A DNA stretch of 64,000 nucleotides from positions 3,503,514-3,567,513 of the forward strand of contig NC_057753.1 in NCBI RefSeq assembly GCF_004010195.1, written 5' to 3'. This stretch comes from Chiloscyllium plagiosum. Lineage: Eukaryota. Shown here piece after piece: positions 8,642 to 57,362 of the stretch. The translations under genes and the position numbers were made by a program. The notes beneath the pieces are model-generated. The model saw only the letters and a list, made by a program, of their open reading frames with translations, was not told the origin of the DNA and did no database searches. Each line of letters opens with the position of its first letter. Within the stretch, counting starts at the first letter, position 1.

Positions 8642-8787
8642 AACTGCCAAATTTAATGCAGCACGAAAACTGCACACTGGTGTGATAGAAAGGAAACTGG
8701 ATGGGAAATAAATCCCAGCAATCTGATTTACTATCACAGCTGTGACCATGACGAGGAGACCTGTTACTGCCATTGACACCAAGGAGT
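8642..8787 (-). pseudogene. 146-bp displaced duplicate of GPCR pseudogene segment 11874-12019 (TM2-TM3)
   Basis: Direct comparison: identical apart from one substitution seen (tgacgagg vs tgatgagg). Confidence 0.9.
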
Positions 8788-10023
8788 GTGCATTGTCTAT
8801 CTTTTAGTTTACATATCTTATGGCCTTTATACTGATACAACAATCTCCTCTCTTGTGTGTTTTGATGCATCACTCATTGTGATCTTGTTGGCTGGAAGAG
8901 TAGGTTCCAAGGAAGACATGGCCGAGACCTACTCCTTATTCAAATGTTTATATTTACTTTCCTTATAAAGGTATTGACAACTACTCAGGTGTAAGCACAG
9001 CAATGACATCTTTATATAAGTGAAATAAGTGAGAGTTTGATCTCTGTCTTTCAATGTATTACCAAACTTGTCCTTGTGAAGCAGGTGCTCAGGTTTAGGA
9101 AGCGAATCGGATGCTAAACTGGACCAGAGATTGAGCATAATTTAATTAGAGTGGTGGCGAAAGGAGGATTGATTATTTGATTGGTTTATTTTCACGTGTA
9201 TCTTGTTAAAATGTACAGTGAAAGGTGTTGTATCATGATGCCACTCTCGGACACCATCTCAATACACAGACAAATAAACCAAAATATACAATACAAAGGC
9301 AGAAAAAAAAGTACTAAGGAGCTTGTCCAACTTTACAGTCCTTGTTATGTGCTCCATTATGGCCTATTGCCCTCGTGGCCAGACACGAGCTTCCTTCTCG
9401 ACGCTGCAGCTGCTGGAACATAAGTCGCCAATCTTGGTGACATCTCGCCTCCAAAGACGCCATCTTGGTTACATTCCTGATTAGTTTACAGAAGCATTTG
9501 TACAATTATTCACAATGGCGAAGGAATGTAATGGAGAGTGTTCAGAAACAATTAGTTTAGGTGGTAAATCATGAATAAAACCCACCTTGCCCTGTTATTG
9601 CATCTCCAGACTTTATTTCAGCTCAGGCACTATCTTGATTTAACATGGGTTACAGTGCACCTGCAGCCATACCCAGATCAAACTCCATATCTTGTGAATG
9701 AATGAAGACACTTTCTAATCAACCGCAGGGATCTTATGATCTGTCTGTGGCTTTGAATTCCTCGCTCAGGTGTCGAGATGCCACGAGAGCGTTCCTGCAC
9801 ATGACTGATCTGTGGATCAGTGGAATGCACATGGAGTAAGTGAATATGAATAATGGAAGCGAAAACCCACTCAAAAAAGTGTACACGACTGTAGAATATG
9901 CATCCTTGAATTAATTCAGTGTGGTACTATCACAAAAGACATGAGACACCATATGGGTCGGTGGGACACAATATATGCTATGGATGCAGAGAATAAAGAA
10001 TCGATTGCAATGTGCAATATACA

Positions 10024-10025
<2 letters not shown>

Positions 10026-10107
<82 letters not shown>
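10026..10107. repeat. (CA)n microsatellite, about 41 units
   Basis: Perfect dinucleotide run. Confidence 0.98.
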
Positions 10108-11051: not shown

Positions 11052-12082
11052 TCAATATTTGAATATTTTAATGAATAAGTTCAAAGTAAATCTCACTCCA
11101 TGCTTTAGCTCATCTCTAATTTTGGTCTGTGTCACAGCATGAATAAATGGGTTGATACAGCAGCTCAGTAACTGTAGCATATCTTCGGTTTGTTCCAAAT
11201 AAAATGTGGAATTGCATAAAGTGGATCCTGAGGAATAATATACTATTCGCAGTTTGAACATGAAGAATATTTTGGAAAAGTAACAAATACAACAGAATAA
11301 AACTGCCAGAGATGGCAAAGAGTAAAATAATGGACTTTTTCCGCATCTCTGGGTCACAGTGATTCTCTCCATTGTTCTGAAGCTGGAGTCTTTTACGGGC
11401 TCTATTGGCCAAGAGAATGCGTCTGATGGTCAGGACATTTAGTAGTAAAATTAGAATGAAAGGGAGACATGGAGTTAAAATAGAATAGATCCAGTTATAT
11501 GCAACCAAGCAGGTGATGTATAATATGCTACAAAACCAGGGTATATTGTTATTTACGTTCCTAGGTTCAAATTGAAAATATAAGACACGGTTTTTCATGC
11601 AGCACAGGGTAGACATTACTCCTATCACCCACGCCGCCACCTTCATAGTGCAATATTTTAGTTTCAGGATCTGTCAAGATATAGCCACAAATCGATCAAA
11701 GTTAACCAGGCGGAGTTGTCAATAACTGCCAAATTTAATGCAGCACATGCAGCACAGGGTAGACATTACTCCTATCACCCACGCTGCCACCTTTATAGTG
11801 CAATATTTTAGTTTCAGGATCTGTCAAGATATAGCCACAAATCGATCAAAGTTAACCAGGCGGAGTTGTCAATAACTGCCAAATTTAATGCAGCACGAAA
11901 ACTGCACACTGGTGTGATAGAAAGGAAACTGGATGGGAAATAAATCCCAGCAATCTGATTTACTATCACAGCTGTGACCATGATGAGGAGACCTGTTACT
12001 GCCATTGACACCAAGGAGTAAGTAACGTATCTGGAGGGACCACAGGTTCGTTGAGACATGATTGCAACCAGTGCCAGATTAG
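11052..12082 (-). pseudogene. GPR139/GPR142-like GPCR pseudogene, exon 2
   Basis: Three ORF pieces (11814-12059, 11116-11646, 11052-11372) tile the paralog at 29746-30656; frameshifts, a deletion before DRF, a 150-bp internal duplication, and an acceptor reading AA instead of AG. Confidence 0.92.
11597..11896. repeat. Tandem duplication, 2 x 150 bp, inside the GPCR pseudogene
   Basis: 11597-11746 vs 11747-11896, two substitutions seen. Confidence 0.95.
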
Positions 12083-13532: not shown

Positions 13533-13602
13533 CTGGAAGATAAATAACTGCAAGGACTGGATAGTAAATGGCAAAGACCAATCCTTTTGGAATCTCATGC
13601 AT
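13533..13602 (-). pseudogene. GPR139/GPR142-like pseudogene, exon 1 (70 nt)
   Basis: MHEIPKGLVFAIYYPVLAVIYLP+G followed by a GT donor; same length and phase as exon 23939-24008. Confidence 0.9.
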
Positions 13603-13653
13603 TTCTGACAGATATTCTGAGCACTTTCCATGAATCATTGAATCGTGCCTATA

Positions 13654-13710
13654 TTTATATAGGGTTAGATATGCATTGCAGGCTCCAAGGAGTTAATTAG
13701 TTGCATTGAA
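13654..13710 (-). promoter_or_regulatory. Putative promoter: TATAAA, O/E-like site, homeodomain site
   Basis: TATAAA at 13659-13654 (57 nt before the ATG); CTCCAAGGA at 13683-13691; TAATTA within 13693-13700. Confidence 0.5.
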
Positions 13711-15926: not shown

Positions 15927-16275
15927 GATAGAATTCCTACAGTGTGGGAATAGACTATTGGGCCCAGTAAGTCCACACCAACCCTCCAAAGGGTATCCCA
16001 TCCAGTCCCATTCCCTGACCGTATTACTTTACATTTCCCCTGACTAATGCACCTAACCTACAGATTCCTGAACATTATAGGCAATTTAGCATGGCCAATT
16101 CACCTAAGCTGCACAAATTTAAACTGTGGATGGAAACCGGAGCACTCAGAGGAAACCAACGCCGACAAGGAGAGAATGTGCAAACTCCACCATGACAGTC
16201 AATCGAGGCTGGAATCGAACATGTGTCTCTGGTGCTGTCAGGCAGCAGTGCTAAGCAGGGAGTTATCATGCCACT
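15927..16275 (-). mobile_element. V-SINE (HE1-like), near full length, nested in Gypsy
   Basis: tRNA-like head, V core and tail all recognisable. Confidence 0.85.
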
Positions 16276-16833
16276 CAGATTTCCAGAACGTTTAAAAGTC
16301 GAGCAGACTCTTCTAGTGGCTGAACCATCAATCGTGTATCCACCAGTATGAGGCACTCAAGGCATCCGCATTTGCCACTTGGCCTTGGGGATGGCATTCC
16401 AATTGTTAACTGAATGCTGTCAGAATGACAGCCCGACGCTGAATTATACCTGAAGCTATGGGAAGCACTGTCCTGTAGAGCTCTAGTGGGGGTTGTGGGC
16501 CGTTGCTATTGCAAAATCACATCTGTAAAGTTATTGGCGGGACTTTCTCACATCAAAGAGAACCGTCAAACTTTCCTTTTCTACCTGGGTCTAATTACAT
16601 TTGGCATCAGCCAAAATTCGAAAAATATGCAGAATTGGGCATTCCTCTCTGCTGGGTCACCGGTGAGCCAGCACAATCCTGGTACAACACGAGGACCGAT
16701 CACATGCCAGTGCTGATCGCAGTGTGCCAACAATCGCTGCTTCTTTTTTCCCCTAAAGGTTATACCTTGACGACAAGGCCATTTTCAAGATTGTCCCTTT
16801 TTCAACATTAAATGTAAGGTTTCCAGCATGGAG

Positions 16834-17030
16834 CTGAAAATGTGTTGCTGGAAAAGCGCAGCAGGTCAGGCAGCATCCAGGGAACAGGAGAATTGACGTT
16901 TCGGGCATAAGCCCGCCTGAAACGTCGATTCTCCTGTTCCCTGGATGCTGCCTGACCTGCTGCACTTTTCCAGCAACACATTTTCAGCTCTGATCTCCAG
17001 CATCTGCAGACCTCACTTTCTCCTCAAAGA
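16834..17030 (+). mobile_element. Penelope pLTR fold-back mini-insertion with 13-bp TSD
   Basis: Inverted arms of about 75-80 bp; TTCCAGCATGGAG at 16821-16833 and 17031-17043. Confidence 0.85.
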
Positions 17031-18769
17031 TTCCAGCATGGAGGCCAAGTAATACATGTATTTTCCATAATGATTCACCAATTCGAGGAAAGATGTAAAT
17101 GCAGAGAAACGTAAGAGCCTGGCCAGCTTTAATCGCTCTCACTTTAACTTACAAACGTGGGAAGACGGTCCTGAGGTCTGTATAGCCCAAGCAGGTCACA
17201 TGGAGTGCCTGGAATACCCATCTTTCCTTCCAAATCCATATCCACCCCTTGTAGAAATGTTTAAGAACTCTATCCAAGTTCTTTAAATTCTCTTTATTTG
17301 TCTTCCCGGTTAGCAGCACAACATCCAGATAACTGGCGACCAGTGAATAAATATTCTCCATCGTCTGCTGTCAATTCTCATAGTCTGATCACACCCCAAA
17401 AAGCCATCATGCATATTAGAAGGAACCTTTATGGATATTAATTGTAGCATGCTTTTAGGAATTCTTATACAATTACAATTACATATACGCATGGCTCATT
17501 TCCCACTTCGTGAAGGATGGACCACGGGCAGGTTTGTGCATAAGTCCTCTATGCAAGGGATTGCGTATATATCCAGTTTCAGAAACAGGTTTACCATTTG
17601 CCGACGGCCCGGATTCTGAATAAAATTTTGACGGCAAGTCAAATACTTGGCTTTGTTTTGGTTTTCCTGTGGGCTGACCGTGATTCCTTCTGTTCAGGAT
17701 ATATCCTGAGTGGGGCTATGCAATTACATTCACTCAAATGGTGTGCCCCAAACTCAGGCGGACTGGCGAGGATGTCCAGTTCCATTGGCATGCACTCCAA
17801 ATCATGTGCCTCACTTGCTTTATTTTCCGATTTTAAAGCCAGTTGTAGTGACTGTTTGAAGTCCAGTCCGTTTTGATTAGTAGGTACCTTTGCATGACGA
17901 ACTGCACTCTGGGAAGGTAAGTGAACTGATATATTTTGGCAGTGGCTGCAGTCGCAGACAGTGAAGAGGACTGTCAGAGAATGCAGCAGAATATAGAGAG
18001 AGGGTCTGGAACAGCACAGGCTTCAAGGGACGATGGGCCTGTTCCTGTGCAGTAATTTTCTTTGTTTATTCTTCTTTCCACATACTGACCCGAGACCTCT
18101 ATAGCAGGATTGAATGATTCAAGCTTCACAAATAACAGCCTATGCCAGAAATGCTTACCCCAAGTAAACGTTTACTGTTGCGAGTGAATGTCTTCAGCAG
18201 CATGCTTTTTTCTCTCTCTCATTGAACGGAAATAGCTCGGCAGAGGTGAATATCCCATCACCAAGTCAACCTTTACTTACACGTGGAGAGACCTTGACAC
18301 TGATCCAGCTACACAAATCCATCTCTCAGAGTGAACAGAACCTCTGACTTTTCTGTTTATTTTTTCCTCATTTCAATCACAACAAACAAAAAAGGGAAAC
18401 AACAAAATCAAATGCCTACCTGAAACAAGGAGAGAGACAAAAAAGAAAACGCTCACTTCTGTTTGTATCTGTCAGCCAAGTCCCCCGATTAGACCAGATT
18501 AACAACCCCAATCAGGAAACTTCTATTCTATATTGCCCACCTGACTAACCTCGTTACATTCATTGCAGTATGTGGGCGGAAATGAAATTTCAATGACAAA
18601 GCACTACCCTGTTGCACACTGTGTCTCCGAATCCTCATTACTAACTTATTGCTAATGAAATGAACGGAGCTAGGAGTCACTGAATAACAGACTTTAAAAG
18701 AAAGGGAGATATCACAAAAGTGTTAAATGTACAATAATTTGCAAGCACATAAAAATAATATATTAGAAA

Positions 18770-19013
18770 TAACACAGCGCCAGAGACCCGGGTTCATTTC
18801 CTGCCTCAGGCGACTGACTGTGTGGAGTTTGCACATACTCCCCGTGTCTGCGTGGGTTTCCTATGGGTGCTCCGGTTTCCTCCCACAGTCCAAATATGTG
18901 CAGGTCAGGTGAATTGGCCATGCTAAATTGCCCGTAGTGTTAGGTAAGGGGTAAATGTAGGGGTATGGGTGGGTTGCGCTTCGGCGGGTCGGTATCTAAT
19001 CTAATCTAATCTA
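18770..19013 (+). mobile_element. V-SINE (HE1-like)
   Basis: B-box-like gggttcatttcc, V core tgtggagtttgcacatactccccgtgtctgcgtgggtttcc, (tctaa)4 tail. Confidence 0.88.
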
Positions 19014-19280
19014 AACTCAGCGGTCTAACACAAATCAAATAATAGATAAACATTTTATTTAAGATTTTCGTAAATTCTGAGTGTCCATTCCTAAAATGAT
19101 TTTGTACTTCTCCTTCACATCTATTCAATAAAGTGAATGTCTTTACATTCTTCATTGCACAACTATGCAACTATAATAACAATATACGCAGTCCTAATAA
19201 TTTGTTGTTCTTCAAATGTGGTTCTTCCCTAAGTACTAAAAATGCATGTTTTGCTTGACGATGAATTTTAAATACTGTTT

Positions 19281-19881
19281 TGTTACAAAGCTGCTCTTTT
19301 AACAAGTTTATGCTGTCCTTGTCTTTTTTTCAGAGAGTTCGTAAAAGACACAGACTCCGAAAGGTAAAAGGTTGAAGGGTTTCTGGGACAATTTGATGAT
19401 AACTAACAGGCAAAATGTTTTTTTTAATCTTTTAATAAATTGTAGCATGAAAGGGGAGTGGCCAGCTCTGCCAACTCAGCTTTACTCTGATTAGTTAGCA
19501 TGCAGTCAGGCAGTTGGTAAAGCTGCTGGACCCAAAGTAACAAGTCCATGCTGTTCTCTGTCTGACTTCACTCCTGTAAGAACATGTTTGATTTTACCTT
19601 TTGTGCCAAGGGGTGTAAATGGGATTGTTGCAAGTATTGGGAACAGCATCATTAAGTTCGTATAATCAGATAGGTTAAGCTTTTCGGTATTCTGTTCTCT
19701 TTTGTTCATGCTTCATTCGGTAATCCTGGTAATAAATGCTGTTTTGTTTAAAAGTAAGTGGTTTGACTAGCTGCATCCTTCCTGAAATATCTGCATCGTA
19801 CTTGCTTCAAACAACTACCAAAGCTAAAGCCCGGGCTGCTTTCTTGAAATGTCTTGAGGAGGTCTGGCCTGGTCCAGAACA
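19281..19881. mobile_element. Solo-LTR-like element, inverted relative to 4307-4993
   Basis: tgttacaa…ggtctggcctggtccagaaca; shared blocks such as aaaggggagtggccag and aagtggtttgactagctgcatc. Confidence 0.7.
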
Positions 19882-20852
19882 TAAATTTACAAAGCCTGTA
19901 ACAGCATTTTAATATTCAGCTCGCAAATGATGTTAATCCCGTTGCCTCAAGCCAATTCGTATCTTTCTTACAGCAAAGGGATAGCGACTCAAACCACATC
20001 ATTCCATCTTTCACTAGGATTACAGTACAATAATAGTATAACATTCAAAGCTTTGAAAAATTGTTCGATTGTTCCGAATCAGACTTTATAATTAACAGAT
20101 TTTGTCAGAAAGTTTTCAACTTAAACGAAAGAAGAAGATACAACTTTTGCACAATACAAATAAACTGCAAGGCAATTTAATTAATATCTATGATACAGAC
20201 TCAAATTTCTTTGAATATAAAAACCCCACTCACATATCCAGCTGAAGAAAATCACAGCTTTTGTTTCTAAAAGTAATTCTAATTTTACGGTTAAATAACT
20301 ATTACAACATGAATAACAGGCCTTCATGAAATCTTTTGATGATGGGTAGCATTCTGAGCATGCAAGGCCGTGCATTTTGCTTGAATTCTGAAGTCACTTG
20401 ATTGTACATCGAGCTGCTGAAGATTGGCGTGCTAGTGTTAGAGTTTCCAATAAGTCGATAATAGGAGAAAAACGACAGACAAATAAAGAAAAAAAAAGTT
20501 TGCCAGTGTGGCTGCTTCTAAAGCAAAGCTGTCTCCTGCTCAAAGCCCAGTCAACACCTGTCCATTCTTCGTTTTCTCTTTATTTTCCAACATTTTCTCG
20601 ATTTGACTGTTCATTATCAGTCCTCTTTTCATTGACCAACTCAATATCTAATCAGCTCACTGTTCCTGAGGTTTCGAATATCTCAGTGCGTTTTTTTTTG
20701 CTCTCTCTTTGCTTCTGAAAAAAAAATCGTCGCCTCTGCAAGTTCAATGTTCACTTTTGGACTGCGACTCATAGTTCTAAACAAAATAAAAAAAAATGAT
20801 GATGGCCTTTGAAACATAACATCATTTAAATTAGGCTTCTCAAGGATATATC

Positions 20853-20990
20853 GGAGAAAGTGAGAACTGCAGATGCTGGAGCTCAGAATCGAGAGTGTAG
20901 TGCTGGAAAAGCAGGGCTAGTCTGGCAGCATCCGAGGAACAGGAGAATCGGCGTTTCAGGCATAAGCAATTCATCAGGAATTGATGAAGC
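20853..20990 (-). mobile_element. Penelope pLTR fragment with degenerate hammerhead core
   Basis: Minus strand attcctgatgaattgcttatgcctgaaacgccgattctcc; homologous to 16834 and 62212. Confidence 0.75.
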
Positions 20991-21009
20991 TGAAGGAAGA
21001 TTCGATGGG

Positions 21010-21430
21010 ATAAATATATTTGTCTAATTCGATCTAGAATTTTCTGAGTGGCAGAAAGCAGACGTGCTCAGAAAATTCGAGAGTAATTTTGTGTTTGGAA
21101 GCATGTACACAGTGGGGTTCTGCAGTATTCAGTGTTGGGGCCCTTTGTTTCTGTTTTACATATAAATGATTTAGACCTGAATGCAGGAGGATTGATTTGT
21201 AAGTTCAACGGTGATATGAAAAGTGATGAGATGATGAAAAGTGAGGAAGATACGCTAGATAACTTAAGGATATAGACAGACTGGTCAGATGGGCCAATCA
21301 GTGGAACTCAATCAGGAAAAGGGTGAGGTGATTCAGTAAGGTACGAAAAAAGAACAATTAACACATGATGAAGACTAAGATTCTGGGAAACATTAATGAT
21401 CAGAATCTATCCAGCATGCATTTCAAAGGT
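21010..21430 (+). mobile_element. Decayed CR1 RT fragment
   Basis: Remnant of the G.PQ.SVLGPL.F..YINDLD motif. Confidence 0.6.
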
Positions 21431-23505: not shown

Positions 23506-23825
23506 AAAAAATGGTCTGTGCAAGATCTGGAAACATGTTGCATTTAATCAGCAATTACTTCGACAGAGAAATGACCTGAAGTGAGAAACTAATTAAGTCT
23601 CCTTCAGAATGATTTTACTTATCAAATGTGATCAACCGTGAAAACCATTGCAGTATATAGAAAGTTTGTATATCTGTGCATAATATTGCTGCGATAATTC
23701 AGTCGTTTCTACATTTTTCATGATAGGGCCAAGCTGTCTTCTCATGAAATGATAAACATTCCATTCAATCAAATCTTAAAATCCGCCTAGCATCAGCTGC
23801 ACTAATATGTTTGTTGCAATCGCTT

Positions 23826-23890
23826 TAATTCATGCAAGAAAATTAAACCAAGTCCTCACATCCCAGGAGTCTTTAAAGAGCTATAATAAG
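23826..23890 (+). promoter_or_regulatory. Putative promoter of the intact GPCR: homeodomain sites, O/E-like site, TATA-like box
   Basis: TAATT at 23826-30, AATTAA at 23841-46, TCCCAGGAG at 23861-69, TATAAT from 23882 (57 nt before the ATG). Confidence 0.5.
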
Positions 23891-23938
23891 GACTATTCTA
23901 GTGTGAAATGTGGAATGCAGACATAGTTGTTGATAAAA

Positions 23939-24008
23939 ATGCACCAAGTGCCATCAGGCTTGCTATTTGCCATTTACTATCCTGTAATTGCAGTGATTGG
24001 AGTTCCAG
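23939..24008 (+). CDS. GPR139/GPR142-like class A GPCR, coding exon 1
   Basis: MHQVPSGLLFAIYYPVIAVIGVP+G, then GT at 24009; joins exon 2 in frame (G|CT = Ala) to complete TM1 GVPAN; a homologous exon exists at 13533-13602. Confidence 0.88.
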
Positions 24009-26560: not shown

Positions 26561-27309
26561 AATAGTCACTTATGCACCTCTGAGTTCATATGACTGCTAA
26601 TGAGAGATTTGTTTCCTACTTTTTGCAATTGGTAATGTCTCAAGTGTTTACATCCTCACTATTTTATCCCCATGAAGAGAGGTATCATAACTGGTGAAAC
26701 TCACATCCAGTATCTGTCTTTTTATTGAAATATCCAGTTTGGGCAACATTAATCAGTTATTCCCGGTGTGGTATATAACATAGTGTTTTGCATTGCATTA
26801 TAATGCTTTGTCAGAGAGATACCTGGTCATTTACGAAACTCTGCAATCAGCTCTGCTCATAACATTCCAAGTTATTCTTAAGTCACTAGTACATTGTGTC
26901 ACAGATATCTGAACAGGAACATGATTTTTTCATTCACTTTCTGCTGTTTTGCAATAGTTTTGAGTAAAGTAATTATTAACTTTTCCAAGCGTGAATGACA
27001 TTAAAATAATTTATTCCAAGGAAAACAATTGGGTCCTCAGTAAAATATAAACTGTGTTGAGTTAATTTCTACAATTTTGCAATTTCCGTTATTTGATTAC
27101 ATTGATATTCTCGATACTTGTTTGTTAATGTGTTATTTTCCTTGTGAATTGGATAACCTTTTATTGGTTCTGATGTGAACTTGATTTCTTGTTGTCCTCT
27201 ATTGGTTCCTAGTAGGCTATGTTGACAATGTTATTTGGAAATTTCAGATAAACATTTTTCGTTAATTAAGAAAGGGTAATAAGGGATATTGGCCAAAGAC
27301 AGGTAAAGA

Positions 27310-29425
27310 AAAAAGAACAACGAAAATTTACAGCCCAGGAGCAGGGCCTTCGGCCCTCCAAGCCTGAGCCGTTCCAAATCCACTGTCTAAACCTGTCGTC
27401 CAATTCCTACATATCTGTGCCCCTCTGCTCCCCACCTACTCATGCATCTGTCCATGCACATATTTAATGAGTCTACCGTGCCTATTTCGACTACCTCTGT
27501 TGGCAATGCGTTCCAGGCACCCAACACCCTCTGTGTAATGTACTTGCCGCGTGTATCACCCGTAAACTTTTCACCCCTCACCTTGAACGCGTGATCTCTC
27601 GTTGTTGAATCCTTCATCCTTGGAAAAAAGCTTATCTCTATCTACCTGTCTGTGCCCTTCATTATTTTGTAGACCTCAATCAGGTCCTCCCGCAATCTTC
27701 TTTTATCTAATGAAAATAATCCTAACCTCCTCAACCGCTCTTCATATCTAGCACCTTCCATACCAGACAACACCCTCGTAAACCATCTCTGCACCCTGCC
27801 AAAGCATCCACATACTTTCGGGAATATGACAACCAGAACTATACACAGTATTCTAAATGTGTCCAAACCCAATGTCTTGTACAGTTTTAACATGTATACT
27901 TATACTCAATCCCCCGTNNNNNNNNNNNNNNNNNNNNNNNNNNNNNNNNNNNNNNNNNNNNNNNNNNNNNNNNNNNNNNNNNNNNNNNNNNNNNNNNNNN
28001 NNNNNNNNNNNNNNNNNNNNNNNNNNNNNNNNNNNNNNNNNNNNNNNNNNNNNNNNNAAAAAGCTTATTAATATCTACCTGTCTGTGCCCTTCATTATTT
28101 TGTAGACCTCAATCAGGTCCTCCCGCAATCTCCTTTTATCTAATGAAAATAATCCTAACCTCCTCAACCGTTCTTCATATCTAGCACCTTCCATACCAGA
28201 CAACACCCTCGTAAACCATCTCTGCACCCTGCCAAAGCATCCACATATTTTCGGGAATATGGCAACCAGAACTATACACAGTATTCTAAATGTGTCCAAA
28301 CCCAATGTCTTGTACAGTTTTTACTTATACTCAATACCCCGTCCGATGAAGGCAAGCATATCATATTCTTTCTGACCACTCTACCCACCTGTGCAACAAT
28401 CTAGAGGGTACAATGGATCTGCACTCCCAGATCTCTCTGCTCATCAACTTTTCCAAGGCTCTTCTGGTTACTGTATAATTCGCTCTCGAATTAGACTTCC
28501 AAAATATATCACCTCACATTTGCCCGCAATGAACTCCATCTGCCACTTCTCTGCCCAACTCTCCAGTCTATATGTATTCTTCTGTATTCTTTGACAGTCC
28601 ACTATGCTTTCTGCTACGCCACCAGTCTTCGTGTTATGTGCAGACTTGCTGATTATACCAACAGTGCCCACTTCCAGATCGTTTATGTATATCACAATCA
28701 ACAGTGGCCCAAACACTGATCCCTGTGGAACACCACTGGTCACCTTTCTCCATTTCGAGAAACTCCCATCAACTACTACTCCCTGTCTCCGGTTGCTCAA
28801 CCAGCTCTTTATCCACCGAGCTAGAACACCTTGCACTCCAAGTAACTTCACTTTCTCCGTTAGTGTAACCTGGGAATCTTCTCAAACACTTTAATAAAGT
28901 CCATGTTTGTGACATCTACAGCCCTTCCTTCATCTATTAACTTGGGCACTTCCTCAAAGAGCTGTATTAAGTTGGCAAGGCACGATCTCCCCCGCAGAAA
29001 ACTATATTGTTTTTCACTGATAAGCCCATTCTTTTCCAAATATAAATAGATTTTATCCCTCAGAGCTTTCTTCAACAACTTTCCCACCACTGACGTCAGG
29101 CTCACTGGTCTGTTCTTACCTGGAATATTTCTACCACCCTTCTTGGACAGGGGGACAACATGAGCAGCCCTCCAGTCCTCCGGCACCTAACCTGTGATTA
29201 CGAATGGTGCAAAGATATCTGTCAGGGCCCCAGCTATTTCCTCTCTCATCTCCCTCAGCAATCTGGGATAGATCCCATTCAATCCTGTGGATTTGTCCAC
29301 ATTAATAACCTCTAGCCTATCCAACACATCTTCCCTACTTAGGTCAACATGATGCAGAGTCATTAAACTTTTATCTCTAATCTCAACATTCATCATGACC
29401 CTCTCCTCAATGAGCATCGATGCAA
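27310..29425 (-). mobile_element. CR1 LINE ORF2 3' half in the GPCR intron, spanning the assembly gap
   Basis: PEDWRAAHVVPL.KKG, RPVSLTSVVGKLL, SGVPQGSVFGPLL..YINDL, LFSLDKRRLREDLIEVYKIM. Confidence 0.92.
27918..28057. other. Assembly gap (140 N)
   Basis: Run of N. Confidence 1.
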
Positions 29426-29745: not shown

Positions 29746-30656
29746 CTAACTTTGCCGTGATCGTGATCATGTCTCGAAGCCGATGTGGTCTAACTGGGTG
29801 TATCACGTATTACCTGGTTTCTATGGCTGTGACAGATCTTCTGGTTATGATAACAGCTGTAATATTAAACCGGATTGCTGGGATTTACTTCTCATCCAGT
29901 TTCCTGTCGATCACACCCGTGTGCAGTGTTCGTTCCGCCCTAAATATTGCAGCAATTGACAGTTCTGCCTGGTTAACGGTAGTCTTCACTGTTGATCGAT
30001 TTATATCTATTGCCTGTCAGAAACTGAAATTAAAATATTGCACTAAGAAAGTGGCATCACGCATTATAGGAATTGTGTGCATGCTCAGCTGCGTAAAAAA
30101 TATATTTACCTACTTTCAGTTGGAACCTAGATATATAATTGACAATATACCTTGGTTCTGTAACATAAAACAAACACTTTATACCTTTCCAGCATGGATC
30201 GCTTATGTCTGGATACGTTCCATATTAACCCCTTTCCTCCCATTCATTCTGATTTTGCTGCTCAATGCTTTGACTGTCAGACACATTAGAGAGGCCAATC
30301 GAGCCCGTAGGAGACTTCGGAACCAGAGCAATGGCATGATTGACCCAGAGATGGAAAAGCGGAGAAAGTCCATTGTCTTACTCTTTGCTATCTCAGCCAG
30401 TTTCATTATGTTGCATTTGTTGTCTTTTGTGACGATGCCTTATGTCCGAATTGCAAACACAACGTATTCCTCAGGTTCAGGTAATCGCAATTATATATTC
30501 ATTCTCCAACAATGTGGGTACATGCTTCAATTATTCAGCTCCTGCGTCAATCCTTTTATTTATGCTGGAACACAGAGAAAATTCAGAGATGAGTTAAAGA
30601 ATGGGGTTAGATACATCCTCAGGTACTTTGTGAAACTATTTATTTTTTGCAAATAG
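29746..30656 (+). CDS. GPR139/GPR142-like class A (rhodopsin-like) GPCR, coding exon 2; spliced product 326 aa
   Basis: Open frame with class A motifs: YLVSMAVTDL, TM3 Cys, SAWLTVVFTVDRFISI, ECL2 PWFC, PFILILLLN, LLFAIS, NPFIY, helix 8 KFRDEL; acceptor ctctttgccgtag; stop TAG. The 345-aa ORF-track N-terminus is intronic. Orthology to GPR139 not established. Confidence 0.93.
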
Positions 30657-31919
30657 AATAATCCCGCTGGGTTTGCACAATATCCCACACTTATCTTCGA
30701 ACATAATATCCTCTTTTCAAGCTGCACTTGCTTTATTCAGTGCTTGATTTGAAGTAAAGAGGAAAGAAGGTTGGAAGCATGGCGTCGAGCTTTAAATGTG
30801 TTCCATCATTCCATTAGATTATAGCTGATTTATCCCAATGCCATTCTCCTGCCCTATTACTATACCTTTTGAGTTGTTCAATGTCTAGAAATCGATCAAA
30901 TAAATTATTGGAGAAATTCAGCAGTTCTGGCAGTCTAGGTGGAGAGAAAACAGAATTAACATTTTGAGTTCAATTACCCTTCTTCTGACGGCTCTCCACA
31001 GATACTACCAGACCTGTGGAGTTTCACCAAGGGCTTTCAGTTTTTCTTTTGGTTCAAATTTTGAGTATCTGCAGTTGCTTGCTTTGCTTACAGATATCCA
31101 TCAATCTCTGTCTTGAATATACTGAGTAGTTGTGATATACAACCCTGTGTTGACATGGAGATGTAAGCATACACAAATGATCCTCAAAATCCGTGTTAGC
31201 TGGTTGAGTTGTCCATGGTTTGAAACTTTTAAAGTTTACATGAAACCAACCAGGAACTGGGGCAGATATGCGCTGGCATATTGCATAGAATAGCTACTTA
31301 ATGTCCAGCATTGGAAACATGCTCGTTCTCTGAGCAGCAAAATTGTCTTATAAAGAAGTTTTTTAAAAAGTTTGTTGCTTTTCTTATTTCTTCAGTTGCC
31401 TTGTGTTCTTGCGTGATAAAAAAACAGAGTTAAATGGAAGAGGAAAAACATGCAAAAGGATAATGAGTCTCACTGCCTTTAATTAAGGATAGAATCCTGA
31501 AGAATCATTCTTGCACTTTGTTTCCCACTTCTTGATGATTTTCTTTCTGTTTCTTCCTCTCTTCCTTATTTATCTCCTTCTCCTTTTCTTCCCCTTCATG
31601 CTCAGCCTGTGTGATTTTGGCATAAAAGCATAAGGTTGACAGGATACAGCTCCTAAGACATCAATTGGGAAAAAAAAGTGTCTAACTGAAGCATTAAAGA
31701 GTCCTAGAGATCTGTACCAAAGAAAAAAGACCTTGGAACAATTGCTTCCACGCTGCTCCAAAAGAATAATGAGAGAAAAGTGGCATGGAACTCGTCAGCC
31801 GCATGTTGTGAAGGGATGATTCATGAATTTTGAACATCTGTTTTTGTACTGTCATCTAATTGAGAAATAATTGATAAAAGCCTATCATTGTATATCGTCT
31901 ATATTTATGCTGTCACGGA

Positions 31920-51579: not shown

Positions 51580-54500
51580 CACTTACTGGGAGACCCAAGC
51601 TCATGGACTCCCGACAACATGGCCTGACCAGATCTAGAGCAAAATCACCAGATGTGCCCGAGGCCATCACCAGTGTCTAATAGAACAGGACCCAGCCAAT
51701 TACTTTCTGGAACGGACTATCCAAATCTTCCCCTGGGCCCGAACAGACAGTCAGGAAGTATAGGAGACACACTGACTGTAGATTGGACTGAAACAACTCG
51801 GTTTCAAGTCATTCTCCCCACCGTACTAATGGAAAATGTCCAAACTGTTGAAAAGAAACTGTACCACCTCAAAGCTAGACTCACCTACCAAATTGGTAAA
51901 AACAATGACTGCAGATGCTGGAAACCAGATTCTGGATCAGTGGTGCTGGAAGAGCACAGCAATTCAGGCAGCATCCGAAGACAGACAAAATCGACGTTTC
52001 GGGCAAAAGCCCTTCATCAGCCTGAAGGGCTTTTGCCCGAAACGTCGATTTTGCCTGTCTTCGGATGCTGCCTGAATTGCTGTGCTCTTCCAGCACCACT
52101 GATCCAGAATCACCTACCAAATTGCTCTGAGAGACTGCTGTTTTCTCTCTTTTATAGAGGCATGGCTCACCCCTGCTTCTTCATCCTGTGTCTTTCAACC
52201 TGGTATTTCTCAGTATACCAAGTGGACTGCGTGGCGTCCTTTGGCAAGGAAACGTTTGAATTATCATCCATCTAATCAACACCTCTTGGTGCTCAGACAT
52301 GGGACCATCGAGAGTGACTGTTCTGTGGGCCTGAACTATCTAATGGTGAGGCTCCGTTCTTAAATACCTGCTGCAGCAGTTCACTTCTGCTATTCTGACA
52401 GCAGTCTGAATCCCACCACATGCAGAAGTGAAGAGCTCATTTGATGAAATATACCACCATAAATCGCCTTGAGACAGAATCCCTGAAGCCTTGTTCATCA
52501 CCCCCGTTGACTCCACCAGGCCAAACTCACGATTGTGCTACCAAGATACCATATTCACATCTCCTATCAAACACTCCTGATCATTGTACACAATCAAAGA
52601 TGTCGAATACTGCCTACCCCTTACCCCAGCACCATCACCACATACCCATACGAAAAAGTCAGACATTAACGCTTTGATCCTTCTCCCGGCTAAAAAGCAA
52701 AACTGAAGCGTGAGAATCCAGTACAGATACTTTGGCAAAGGTTATCAGAGACGACACATGAGCTCCTATCTGATTACTTTAACTCAAGAAATTAGCAGCT
52801 AACTTAAGTGTGCATACCACTACCATTACAGACGTTATCAATAATGTGCAGGCGACTGAATGTGAAATAAATAAATTCATGTGCTTCCCAACTGGAAAAC
52901 ACGTGTGAGGCAGGAGACCGACTCCCTACTGAAGTCTAGGGCTTAGCCGTTCAAGTCGGGTGACTCTCAGCTACACAGGAAATCTAGATGGGTGCCGAGA
53001 GACCATAACAGAATAGAGTCCCAGATTAGCCACATGAATACATGTCAACTGTGGCAAGGCTCATATAACAGGAATACAAAGTCAACTTGATTAAAATAGA
53101 TTCAGGATGAGATCAATTCATTCCCTTCTCATTGTGAACTCAAGTTCAATGAAGTTATGCCACCCTGCCTCGAAAACCTTGGATACAACTATTCCCTCAT
53201 TCAACACCACAAACTTTGAATAGGTTCTCTTGAGAGAGAATCAGGAGAAAGCTATGGGCCTAGTTGGAGTCCCCAGACGTGCACTCAGATTCTGCGCAGA
53301 GCAACTTGTGAGAACCTTTGCAGACATCATTAAAATCCTTACACTAATCTGCGGTTCCCACCTGCTTCAAGACCACCACTGTCATCCCAGTGTAAAAGAA
53401 AGATCAGGCAGCATGTCTTAATGACTACTACCCAGTAGCTCCGACATCCCAACATTATGAACTGCTTCAAGAGATTAGTAATCTCGTCTCCCAGATTGCC
53501 TCGATCCATTACAATTTGCATAATATTACAATAGGTCTACAGCAGATAACGTCATCCTGGCCCTGTACTTATCCAGACTCCTATTTATTGACTTCAGCTC
53601 CGACTGCAACACCAAAACTCCAACAAAATTAACTTCCAGATGCCCAGACGAAGGACTCTATTCCCTTCCCATCCTGCCCCGCCCCCACCAATGCAATGTG
53701 ATCCTCGACTTCCTAACCTGCACTCCGCAATCAGTAAAGGTGTGTAACAACGTCTCCTGCATGAAAATCCTTCACACCGCTGCCCCACAAGGATATTTAC
53801 TCAGACCCTCGGCATGCTGTGTGCATAATCATAGTTGTGCAGCCAAATTCTACTGTAACTCCATTTACAAGTTTGCGGATGATACCACATAATGGGTTGA
53901 ATCTTAAACAGCAACAAGACAGATTGCAACAAAGTGATAGAGAGGTTAATGTTATGATGTAAAGACAACAATGTCACCTTGCAGATTAGAAAACCGAAAG
54001 AGATGGTCAACCACTTCAGGAAGTGCAGTAGAGGGTAAGCCCGTCTGGATCAATAGTGCTGAGCTGGAGTTGGTCGAGAGCTTCAAGTTCCGAAGAGTAA
54101 ATATCACTAACAATCTGTTCTGGCTCATCCATGTCTACACAACTGTAATGAAAGAATACCAATGCTCCTAATATATCAGAAGATAAAGGAAATTCTTCAT
54201 GTCTACAATGGCTGTTACCAATTTCTGTCGATGAACCATGGAAAGCATTCCGTCCGGATGCATCACAACTTTGCATGGGAAGTGCTCTCCTCAAGATTGT
54301 AAGAAATTACAGTGAGTTGTTAACGTAGCCCCAAACCAGCCTTTCTTCCAGTGACTCCTTCGATGCTTCCCACTGCGTCCATAAAACAGATAATGTAGCA
54401 AACAACACTCCCAACTGGTTGTATTCTCTTCGACCCTATTTTGTCGGGTAGCAGATACGAAAGCTTGAAAACATATACCGCCAAATACAAGATTCGACTC

Positions 54501-54794: not shown

Positions 54795-57362
54795 GAGAAA
54801 TAAGAAAGGGAACATAATCTTATTGGGTTTGTATTATAAACCCCGAAGAGTCAGAGGGAAATTGAGAAACAAACTTGTAAGGAGATCTCAGCTATCTGTA
54901 AGGTGGTTATGGCAGGGGATTTTAACTTTTCAAAGATAGACTGGGACTGCCATAGTGTTAAAGGGTTACATGGAGAGGAATTTGTTAAGCGTGTACAAGA
55001 CAAGTTTCTGATTCAGTATGTGGATGTGCCGACTAGAGAAGGTGAAAAACTTGACCTACTCTTGGGAAATAAGGCAGGGCAGGTGACTGAGGTGTCAATG
55101 GGAGAACACTTTGGGGCCAGCGATCATAATTCTATTCTATTTAAAATAGTGATGGAAAAGGATAGACCAGATCTAAAAGTTAAAGTTCTAAATTGGAGAA
55201 TTGGAGAAAGGCCAATTTTGACGGTATTAGGCAAGAACTTTCGAATGCTGATTGGAGGCAGATGGTTGGAAAATGGGGAGATTTCAGAAATGAGATAACG
55301 AAAACCAAGAGAAAGTATATTCCTGTCAGGGTGAAAGGAAAGGCTGGTAGGTATAGGGAATGATAGATAACTAAAGAAGTTGAGGGTTGGATTAAGAAAA
55401 AGAAGGTAGCATATGTAAGGTTTGGACAGGATAGATCGAGTGAATCCTTAGAAGGGTATAAAGGAAGTAGGAGTATATTTAAGAGAGAAATCAGGAGGAC
55501 AAAAAGGGGACATGAGATAGCTTTGGCAGATAGGATTAAGGAGAATCCAAAGAGTTTTTACAAATACATTAAGGACAAAAGGGTAACTGGGGAGAGAAAA
55601 GGGCCCCTCAAAGATCAGCAAGGTGGCCTTTGTGTGGAGCCGCAGAAAATGGGGGAGATACTAAATGAATATTTTGTATCAGTATTTACTGTGGAAAAGG
55701 ATATGGAAGATATAGACTATAGGGAAACAGATGGAGACATCTTGCAAAATGTCCAGATTACACAGGAGGAAGTGCTGGCTGTCTTGAAGCGGGTAAAGGT
55801 GGATAAATCCCCAGGACCGTATCAGGTGTGCCCGAGAACGCTGTGGGAAGCTGGAGAAGTGATTGCTGGGCCTTTTGCTGATATATTTGTATAATCGATA
55901 GTCACAGTTGAGGTGCTGGAAAACTAGAGATTGGCTAACGTGTTGCCACTGTTTAAGAAGGGTGGTAAGGACAAGCCAGGGAACTATAGACCAGTGAACC
56001 TGACCTCGGTGGTGGGCAAGTTGTTGAAGGGAATCCTGAGGGACAGGATGTACATGTATTTGGTAAGGCAAGGACTGATTCGGAATAGTCAACATGGCTT
56101 TGTGCGTGGGAAAACATGTTTCAGAAACTTGATTGAGTTTTTTGAAGAAGCAACAAAGAGGATTGATGAAAACAGAGCAGTATATGTGATCTATATGGAC
56201 TTCAGTAAGGCGTTCAACAAGGTTCTCGATGGGAGGCTGATTAGCAAGGTGAGATCTCATTGAATACTTGGAGAACTAGCCATATGGATACAGAACTGGC
56301 TCAAAGGTAGACAACAGAGGGTGGTGGTGGAGAATTGTTTTTCAGACTGGAGGCCTGTGGCAGTGGGGTGCCACAAGGATCGGTGCTTGGTCATTTAATT
56401 TTTGTCATTTGGATGCGAGCATAAGAATTACAGTTAGTAAGTTTGCAGATGACACCAAAATTGGAGGTGTAGTGGACAGCGAAGAGGGTGACCTCAGATT
56501 ACAACAGGATCTGGACCAGACGGGCCAATGGGCTGAGAAGCATCAGATGGAGTTTAATTCAGATAAATGCGGGGTGCTGCATTTTGGGAAAGCAAATCTT
56601 AGCAGGACTTATACACTTAATGGTAAGGTCCCACGGAGTGTTGCTGAACAAAGAGACCTTGGAGTGCAGGTTCACAGCTCCTTGAAAGTGGAGTCGCAGG
56701 TAGATAAGATAGTGAAGAAGTCGTTTTGTATTCTTTCTTTTCTTGGTCGGAGTATTGAGTAAAGGAGTTGGGATGTCATGTTGCAGCTGTAGAGGACATT
56801 GGTTAGGCCACTGTTGGAATATTGTATGCAATTCTGGTCTCCTTCCTATGGGAAAGATGTTGTGAAACTTGAAAGGGTTGAGAAAAGATTTACAAGGATG
56901 TTGCCAGGGTTGGAGGATTTGTGCGATAGGGCGAGGCCGAACAGGATGGGGCTGTTTTCCCTGGAGCGTTGAAGGCTGAGGGGTGACTTTATAGAGGTTT
57001 ACAAAATTATGAGGGTCATGGATAGGGTAAATAGGCAAAGTCTTTTCCCTGTGGTCGGTGAGTCCAGAACTAGAGGGCATTGGTTTAGGGTGAGAGGCGA
57101 AATACATAAAAGAGTCCTACATGGCAACTTTTTCACACAGAGTGTGGTATGGGTATTGAATGAGATGCCATAGGAAGTGGTGGAGGCTGGTACAATTGCA
57201 ACATTTAAGAGGCATTTGGATGGGTATATGAATAGGAAGGGGTTGGAGGGATATGGGATGGGTGCTGGCAGGTGGGACTAGATTGTGTTGGGCTATCTGG
57301 TCGGCATGGACGAGTTGGACCAAAGGGCCTGTTTCCATGCTGTACATCTCTATGACTCTATG
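54795..57362 (+). mobile_element. Young CR1 ORF2 (endonuclease end + RT) with 3' UTR
   Basis: VMAGDFNF..IDW, LDLLLGN, ASDHNSI, VDKSPGP, NYRPVNLTSVVGK, YMDFSKAF, FADDTKIGG; tail ctctatgactctatga. Confidence 0.95.

Follow-up and report, generated by a model that had tools for sequence, protein, structure and literature searches.

A position-fixed homeodomain, O/E-like and TATA promoter plan in a large shark receptor family resembles mouse olfactory regulatory DNA

The regulatory DNA with which the locus reported here compares most closely is that of the mouse olfactory receptor (OR) genes. Their promoters were described as enriched for O/E and homeodomain sites, with a TATA box occurring in a subset (Young et al. 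2011, PMC3247239); in a table printed there, the number 137 stands beside 167 matches of a stringent matrix in 314 promoters, which is read here as 137 promoters possessing a site. Next to these promoter words, a composite of an Lhx2 and an Ebf site was described as marking the Greek Island OR enhancers and as being depleted from OR promoters (Monahan et al. 2017, PMC5608512; PMC11643329), whereby the two sites were given as lying 1 bp apart (PMC11643329). For cartilaginous fishes, genome papers speak of a 'paucity' of GPCRs (PMC8455134), and possible 'non-traditional' olfactory mechanisms were brought up in a preprint (bioRxiv 10.1101/2025.02.19.638963). The olfactory neurons of the catshark were reported to be microvillous throughout (TRPC2+/Go+) with V2Rs as the main receptors (PMC10116579), and no GPCR was among the 50 most specific genes of catshark 'brain & olfactory epithelium' (PMC11979771). 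Neither of these two studies looked at the receptor family considered here, no gpr139 entry is contained in the supplement of PMC10116579, and a search of the literature found no paper on the shark family or its promoters.

The window, meaning the whole analysed stretch of 64 kb, lies on contig C44 of a 3.56-Gb genome. The original prediction had assigned two GPR139-like receptor genes to it, each preceded by an olfactory-receptor-style promoter, and one of the two is indeed an intact gene: the exon 2 product of the + strand gene is a 7tm_1 receptor (E 3.1e-22) ending with a stop at 30654-56, and exons 1 and 2 together encode 326 aa (Table 1). Its neighbour, oriented divergently on the - strand, is a pseudogene, since its exon 2 lies in three frame-shifted pieces with about 146 nt of extra DNA past TM3 and an in-frame stop. 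This pseudogene has kept an intact exon 1, the splice donor and the best composite copy of the window.

Further observations concern the remainder of the window. Much of intron 1 and of the intergenic space is taken up by very high-copy repeats (16070-19404, 20739-21405 and 26742-29409); in DNA runs, their contig depths add up to as much as about 2 million as compared to about 10-20 for unique DNA. Birth-and-death turnover has left two receptor fragments as relics, one at 8645-8788 (-; 48 aa, 79% identity) and one at 2286-2593 (+; TM1-TM3, degraded and interrupted by stops). At about 10000-10090 there is a long (CA)n/(TG)n microsatellite, with THTH and CVCV runs in the ORF translations, and three low-complexity, non-receptor ORFs of 180-207 aa at 51652-52275 (+), 55679-56260 (-) and 56559-57107 (-) are possibly parts of repeats.

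Table 1. Coordinates of the promoter and gene features of the intact receptor gene (+) and the neighbouring pseudogene (-), in window positions.
Feature	Position	Strand	Basis or remark
Distal conserved block TCTCATGAAATGATAAACATTCCATTCAATCAAAT, common to the - gene	23740..23773	+	Pairwise alignment columns 1-35
E-box CAGCTG(CAC) at -145	23794..23802	+	Sequence; CAGCTG itself 23794-99
TTTAATTCATGCAA: upstream homeodomain-like TAATT core and ATGCAA word	23824..23837	+	Kept in closest paralogues L002-L004
O/E-like ATCCCAGGAG at -79, 8/10 against family consensus CTCCCTGGAG	23860..23869	+	PWM 8.7; abutting TAATTA lost
TATA-like box TATAATA at -57	23882..23888	+	Sequence
Predicted transcription start, about 30 nt past TATA	23911..23913	+	Inferred from usual TATA-to-start distance
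Exon 1, MHQVPSGLLFAIYYPVIAVIGVP plus 1 nt; donor GT 24009-10	23939..24008	+	Sequence
Exon 2, acceptor AG 29744-45, phase 1, 302 open codons and stop	29746..30656	+	7tm_1 domain
AATAAA, candidate poly(A) signal, 243 nt past stop	30899..30904	+	Inferred, sequence only
Near-perfect composite CTAATTAA-CTCCTTGGAG-CCTG	13679..13700	-	PWM 28.6; fits mouse Lhx2/Ebf 17-nt pattern
TATAAAT at -57	13653..13659	-	Sequence
Exon 1, MHEIPKGLVFAIYYPVLAVIYLP plus 1 nt; donor GT 13532-31	13533..13602	-	Sequence
Exon 2, broken, pseudogene	11061..12080	-	Three pieces, frames -3, -2, -3

Comparison of the two promoters bore out the core of what had been seen at first. A TATA-like hexamer does start exactly 57 nt before both ATGs (TATAAT at 23882 for the ATG at 23939 and TATAAA at 13659 for that at 13602), and a match to YYYCARRRR was confirmed upstream of it in either promoter, namely TCCCAGGAG at 23861-69 and, on the - gene strand, CTCCTTGGAG at 13692-83 (equal to CTCCAAGGA at 13683-91 on the + strand), directly preceded there by CTAATTAA at 13700-93. 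The upstream regions align with 161 identical of 284 columns, and some of the matching blocks lie as far as about 200 nt upstream, which means that the flanks, described before as diverged, are so only in part; CTGCACT of the E-box neighbourhood is likewise common to both. The two promoters are thus paralogues that can be aligned across about 200 nt, and their equal TATA distance is for this reason inherited. The O/E-like word starts at -79 in the + gene and at -90 in the - gene, a difference which results from an 11-nt insertion before the TATA in the subgroup of the - gene. The + gene carries TAATT at 23826-30 within TTTAATTCATGCAA (23824-37) and, further, AAATTAAA at 23840-47. Homeodomain cores are therefore present in both promoters as predicted, yet they do not occupy homologous places, as the alignment sets CTAATTAA of the - gene opposite GTCCTCA in the + gene. 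The same applies to the AATTCA(A)TGCAA word, of which two copies exist but do not align; as a family feature it was rejected, ATGCAA at about -120 to -101 being found just 6 times among 87 promoters.

With its exon 2 protein as query, the intact gene was identified to belong to a very large family. A first look at the genome gave 8,020 candidates, and all 130 that were scored proved full-length with E 3.5e-108 or better; there are hence at least 130 full-length exon 2 copies, and 107 of the 130 scored ones contain no stop. The family is arranged in tandem clusters on several contigs, to which the window contributes one intact gene, one pseudogene and two fragments. Large copy number, tandem clusters and pseudogenes are the pattern of sensory receptor families. 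The protein collection returned 971 matches at E 1e-10 or better, the best 120 of which are all from sharks of nine genera and mostly carry the name 'probable G-protein coupled receptor 139'. Among 5.8 billion proteins, no record matched the + gene or its paralogues of 85-88% identity, the best being a catshark protein at 73%, and because of this the small clade formed by the + gene and three paralogues (without an abutting TAATTA) seems to be unannotated. Three paralogues at 85-88% identity reside on the same contig (C44:3585728, 3690575 and 3854386).

As regards the GPR139-like identity given in the original prediction, the receptor is of class A (7tm_1), and GPR139 (7VUG, 9M42) is its sole relative at E 1e-5 or better among solved structures. 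That match is remote (E 5.5e-6, 29 bits), and in view of its weakness 'GPR139-like' is to be taken as a loose label; the naming is further weakened by the fact that the databases also use capa receptor-like, GPR15-like and TRH receptor-like for the matches. With a likeness this distant, little basis is left for the earlier guess that the receptors respond to aromatic amino acids.

The family allowed a far larger set of promoters to be compared. A DNA search with promoter and exon 1 gave 40 scored matches among 52 candidates, and the exon-1 word TTTGCNATTTAYTAYCC gave 124 genome matches as compared to 11 for its backwards control, adding 79 further loci from the 100 matches listed. Of the resulting 109 loci, the 86 retained possess an ATG 27 nt before the exon-1 word together with a 24-codon frame that is open, whereas 23 were discarded. 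Removing the window copy from the 86 and adding the window's own two promoters yielded 87 promoters, a sample which may be biased towards one branch of the family, as a single exon-1 word was used to collect it. The consensus CTCCCTGGAG is matched at 8/10 bases or better within -140..-55 in 63 of these 87 promoters, with 39 of the 63 starting exactly at -79, whereas a control stretch of equal width (-300..-215) reaches this level in none of the 87. Since CTCCCTGGAG was derived from the same data, published patterns were used for the further tests. The O/E core TCCCYNGRG (MatBase V$NOLF as printed in Table 1 of PMC3247239) occurs in 33/87 promoters with all forward matches inside -95..-60 and one reverse match, whereas four control windows gave 0 and the mean of the shuffles was 0.1. 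TAATTA was found within -105..-68 in 40/87 (control windows 0, 2, 0 and 2; shuffle mean 3.1), and the 17-nt Lhx2-Ebf pattern WWAHDRRBHHHHNDRDD, taken from the methods of PMC11643329 (mouse), within -115..-75 in 27/87, among them the promoter of the - gene but not that of the + gene, where dinucleotide shuffles gave a mean of 5.0 and a maximum of 11 in 200. The check proposed with the original prediction, i.e. motif enrichment upstream of exon 1 across the paralogues, thus gave a positive answer, as the O/E core, TAATTA and the composite are all enriched by position against shuffles or control windows, and TATA is position-enriched as well.

Spacing within these promoters is equally regular. 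TATAAA lies within -66..-46 in 36/87 promoters; 57 paralogues have a TATA-like word in -70..-40, and in 38 of them its first base is at -57. The gap from TAATTR to TCCC measures 2 nt in 26/36 cases, 1 nt in two others and zero in four, and TCCC is followed by TATA at a distance of 21 nt in 27/37. The usual plan accordingly comprises TAATTA 2 nt before the O/E-like CTCCCTGGAG at -79, followed by TATAAAT at -57. Farther upstream, the E-box CAGCTG, often as CAGCTGCAC, is the top enriched hexamer of -200..-93 (32/87 promoters, all but one within -160..-121), and a further TAATT at -120..-101 was counted 20 times among the 87. Words similar to the distal block of the two window promoters (CCATGAA, ATAAACA, CATCAAA) recur in many paralogues, and loosely conserved blocks reach to about -230, beyond which conservation fades. 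A CRE/ATF-like TG[AG]CATCA between the O/E word and the TATA was considered as a family feature and discarded, being found in just 14/87 promoters and 5/30 groups of them. One locus (L064, C39:23571369-23571916) carries a (CT)n repeat in place of composite and TATA while exon 1 and leader remain, and hence represents a natural promoter knockout. Taken by position, homeodomain word, O/E-like word and TATA form a real, position-fixed and family-wide promoter plan.

All sampled promoters are paralogues, and part of their likeness is for this reason due to descent. Blastn of the distal 175 nt divided the 87 promoters into 30 groups without mutually alignable distal sequence, of which 18 hold the O/E-like word at 8/10 or better. 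A separate sample used exon 2 as the sole criterion and comprised 16 genes, for the most part those least similar among the scored copies, each with 10 kb of upstream DNA; exon 1 could be located for 15 of them. The family PWM gave its best or second-best match within the 10 kb at 73-88 nt before the ATG in 12 of these 15, and 8/15 score above 16.3, which is the highest PWM value in 20 shuffled windows (the matrix was built from 61 sites, with the window's own left out). Beyond the promoters, the gene strand of the 16 ten-kb upstream stretches contains no extra composite site above noise. Exact TAATTANCTCCCTGGAG has 19 matches genome-wide as compared to 2 for its backwards control; a recognised family exon 1 follows 70-97 nt later in 13 of the 19, and in four more an ATGCAYG start follows at the same distance while failing the exon-1 test. 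Two identical loci, L114 (C25:33597466) and L127 (C89395:6527), have the exact TAATTACCTCCCTGGAG with neither family exon 1 nor ATGCAYG downstream, and these may represent a single place assembled twice, or TAATTACCTCCCTGGAG may serve another purpose there.

Divergence was measured as ungapped pairwise difference among 32 non-redundant promoters chosen by TATA at -57 alone. Here, the O/E columns differ by 0.40 on average and the homeodomain columns by 0.45, as compared to 0.49-0.50 for neighbouring columns and 0.67 for columns -140..-88; third codon positions of exon 1 differ by 0.34. When selection was by the O/E word itself, the difference was 0.25, a value which is partly circular. By this ungapped measure, the conservation footprint over the O/E and homeodomain columns is real but modest.

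Against this background, the idea that short words merely co-occur in two promoters by chance, which the original prediction had kept as an option, can be weighed. Each of the words is short and common in the AT-rich DNA of the window, where YYYCARRRR was counted 96 times (1 per 667 nt), TAATT 251 times (1 per 255 nt) and TATAAW 108 times. The ordered triple TAATT, YYYCARRRR, TATAAW, on the other hand, occurs only 3 times in the 128 kb of both strands, two of the three lying exactly 57 nt before exon-1 ATGs, and the same plan recurs at fixed position in 63/87 paralogues as well as in 12/15 of the exon-2-chosen genes, by which chance is refuted as an open option and its probability becomes close to nil. 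The third triple, at 27046 (+), belongs to intron 1, which is rich in repeats, and has probably arisen by accident.

The focal promoter itself conforms to this family-wide plan only in part: of the homeodomain, O/E and TATA module ascribed to it, the O/E-like half and the TATA are present. Its O/E-like word keeps the register of -79, as it is found in 39 of the 63 well-matching paralogues, whereas TCCCAGGAG misses the Y at position 5 of the O/E core TCCCYNGRG, and TAATT is found only at -113 and does not abut the O/E-like word. By the family PWM, the focal site (23852, +) scores 8.7 and ranks fifth in the window, with shuffled windows reaching 12.0 on average and 16.3 at most; the focal promoter on its own is at noise level. 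The sole match in the window above the shuffled maximum is the composite of the - pseudogene (28.6 at 13700, -), and no further enhancer-like composite site above noise was found by this matrix in the 64 kb. In the intact gene and its three closest paralogues, all with an open exon 2, the O/E-like word and the TATA are retained in register, the abutting TAATTA is lost and TTTAATTCATGCAA farther upstream is retained. In these four genes, the TAATT situated about 30 nt farther upstream may substitute for the lost abutting homeodomain word.

Transcription of the focal gene is predicted to start about 30 nt past the TATA, near 23912, which would give a leader of about 27 nt. Between TATA and ATG the leaders follow the consensus TTTTCA.TGAA.TGC.GAA....TCAGAGCTTCTGATAGAA, within which the family consensus TGC.GAA occupies -30..-24 and an initiator-like BBCABW with its A at -27 is found in 19 promoters. 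It might be argued that the conserved block is intronic, that transcription starts in an upstream non-coding exon and that TTTTCAG/TG at about -37 serves as splice acceptor; conservation is indeed seen for a YYYYCAG-like word at -43..-36, with C at -38 in 37/39, and CTGAC/GTGAC words fitting a branch point lie 15-35 nt before it. The pyrimidine tract, however, is just 4-5 nt long, the TATAAAT columns rank with the most strongly conserved (A at -56, -54 and -53 in 39/39), the initiator-like word follows the TATA by 30 nt in the 19 promoters mentioned, and conservation fades beyond about -230. An intronic location of the block is consequently regarded as improbable.

Taken together, it is proposed that 23740-23938 would serve an intact receptor gene of two exons as its proximal promoter and would follow a plan common to a very large shark family, in which an E-box near -145, a homeodomain word, the O/E-like word at -79 and the TATA at -57 would act together. 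Factors of the EBF type and the LIM-homeodomain type are predicted to read this plan, with the composite CTAATTAACTCCCTGGAG as candidate target, and such reading would confine expression to a single type of neuron, for which olfactory sensory neurons are the likeliest candidate. As the promoter words resemble those which switch on mouse smell-receptor genes, use of the family by sensory neurons appears likely, and we lean, if only slightly, towards the reading that the plan is read by EBF- and LIM-homeodomain-type factors in one neuron type, most likely an olfactory one. What supports the olfactory-style reading is a resemblance which stands up to motif tests defined a priori, and for the focal promoter the reading is at its weakest. 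The wider idea, that sharks possess a large unrecognised olfactory repertoire of GPR139-related GPCRs with an Lhx2/Ebf-type composite in each TATA promoter, is put forward tentatively and is rather unlikely to hold.

EBF and E-box factors act in B cells and in many other neurons, too. A real, conserved family promoter might be read by factors other than these or in a different cell type, be it a neuron of the central nervous system, a further kind of sensory cell, a secretory cell or, as with lymphocytes, a lineage depending on EBF and E-proteins, and the likeness to OR promoters would then be a resemblance of short words, uninformative on smell. In line with this, CTCCCTGGAG is a palindrome of CTCC halves and not of TCCC/GGGA, an E-box accompanies the CTCCCTGGAG word in 32/87 promoters, the spacing is 1 nt off that of the mouse composite, GPR139 itself was described as a brain receptor (PMC5103216), and the catshark data leave little visible room for another large set of nose receptors (PMC10116579; PMC11979771). 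What speaks for smell instead is that the words published for OR promoters are matched by O/E core, TAATTA and TATA alike, with a fixed position for each, and that more than 130 copies with pseudogenes and tandem clusters follow the pattern of sensory receptor families. In addition, we know of no other factor with exactly this CTCCCTGGAG word. Reading of the plan in another cell type is accordingly a minority possibility, to be taken seriously, while the olfactory reading is the one preferred here.

As to expression, the search of sequencing runs with exon 2 listed no RNA run; the three runs X1-X3, which contain 0.45-0.48 of the exon-2 words, are DNA, as they cover introns and intergenic DNA. 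One single-cell RNA run (X6), taken without an organism control, gave 0 reads of 8.3 million records at 95% likeness, and the cluster members of ten family proteins are all NCBI gene models with none RNA-derived. If the olfactory repertoire were real, the homeodomain and O/E code of smell-receptor choice would predate the OR family and be independent of it, and good smell in animals with almost no ORs would be explained. A family of hundreds of genes with smell-receptor-type promoter words is, in this respect, a concrete and cheaply testable candidate for the missing receptors, and should the genes be active elsewhere, so rigid a promoter would still be a clean handle on the cell type and on the factors reading it.

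Comparison with the known systems may begin with the receptors. GPR139, like the shark genes, comprises two exons with an intron in TM1. To GPR139 and GPR142 the shark receptor is alike in being of class A (7tm_1), and it differs from them by existing in hundreds of copies instead of one gene. With the mouse OR promoters, the shark promoters have in common the O/E core TCCCYNGRG, TAATTA-type sites and the TATA, and like those they belong to a large, clustered GPCR family. The mouse words are given as scattered within about 200 bp (PMC3247239), whereas the shark words lie at one fixed position, rigidly spaced and abutting; moreover, the shark genes possess a coding exon 1 with an intron inside TM1, and their receptors are not ORs. 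Greek Islands are resembled in that a homeodomain word stands directly 5' of the O/E word with stereotyped spacing. In contrast to these enhancers, the shark composite is promoter-proximal, being a single site 22 nt before the TATA and neither intergenic nor clustered, its gap is mostly 2 nt as compared to 1 bp in the mouse, so that the mouse pattern fits only one base out of register, its 3' half reads GGAG and not GGGA, and the focal + promoter is without a composite. The GGAG half departs from the EBF palindrome and leaves the a/r positions of the MatBase consensus unmatched. Motif by motif, a match of the shark plan to the published definitions of mouse OR promoters and Greek Islands is nevertheless supported at the level of sequence. 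On paper, the shark module would work as mouse OR promoters and Greek Islands do, and the claim made here is one of likeness to these systems.
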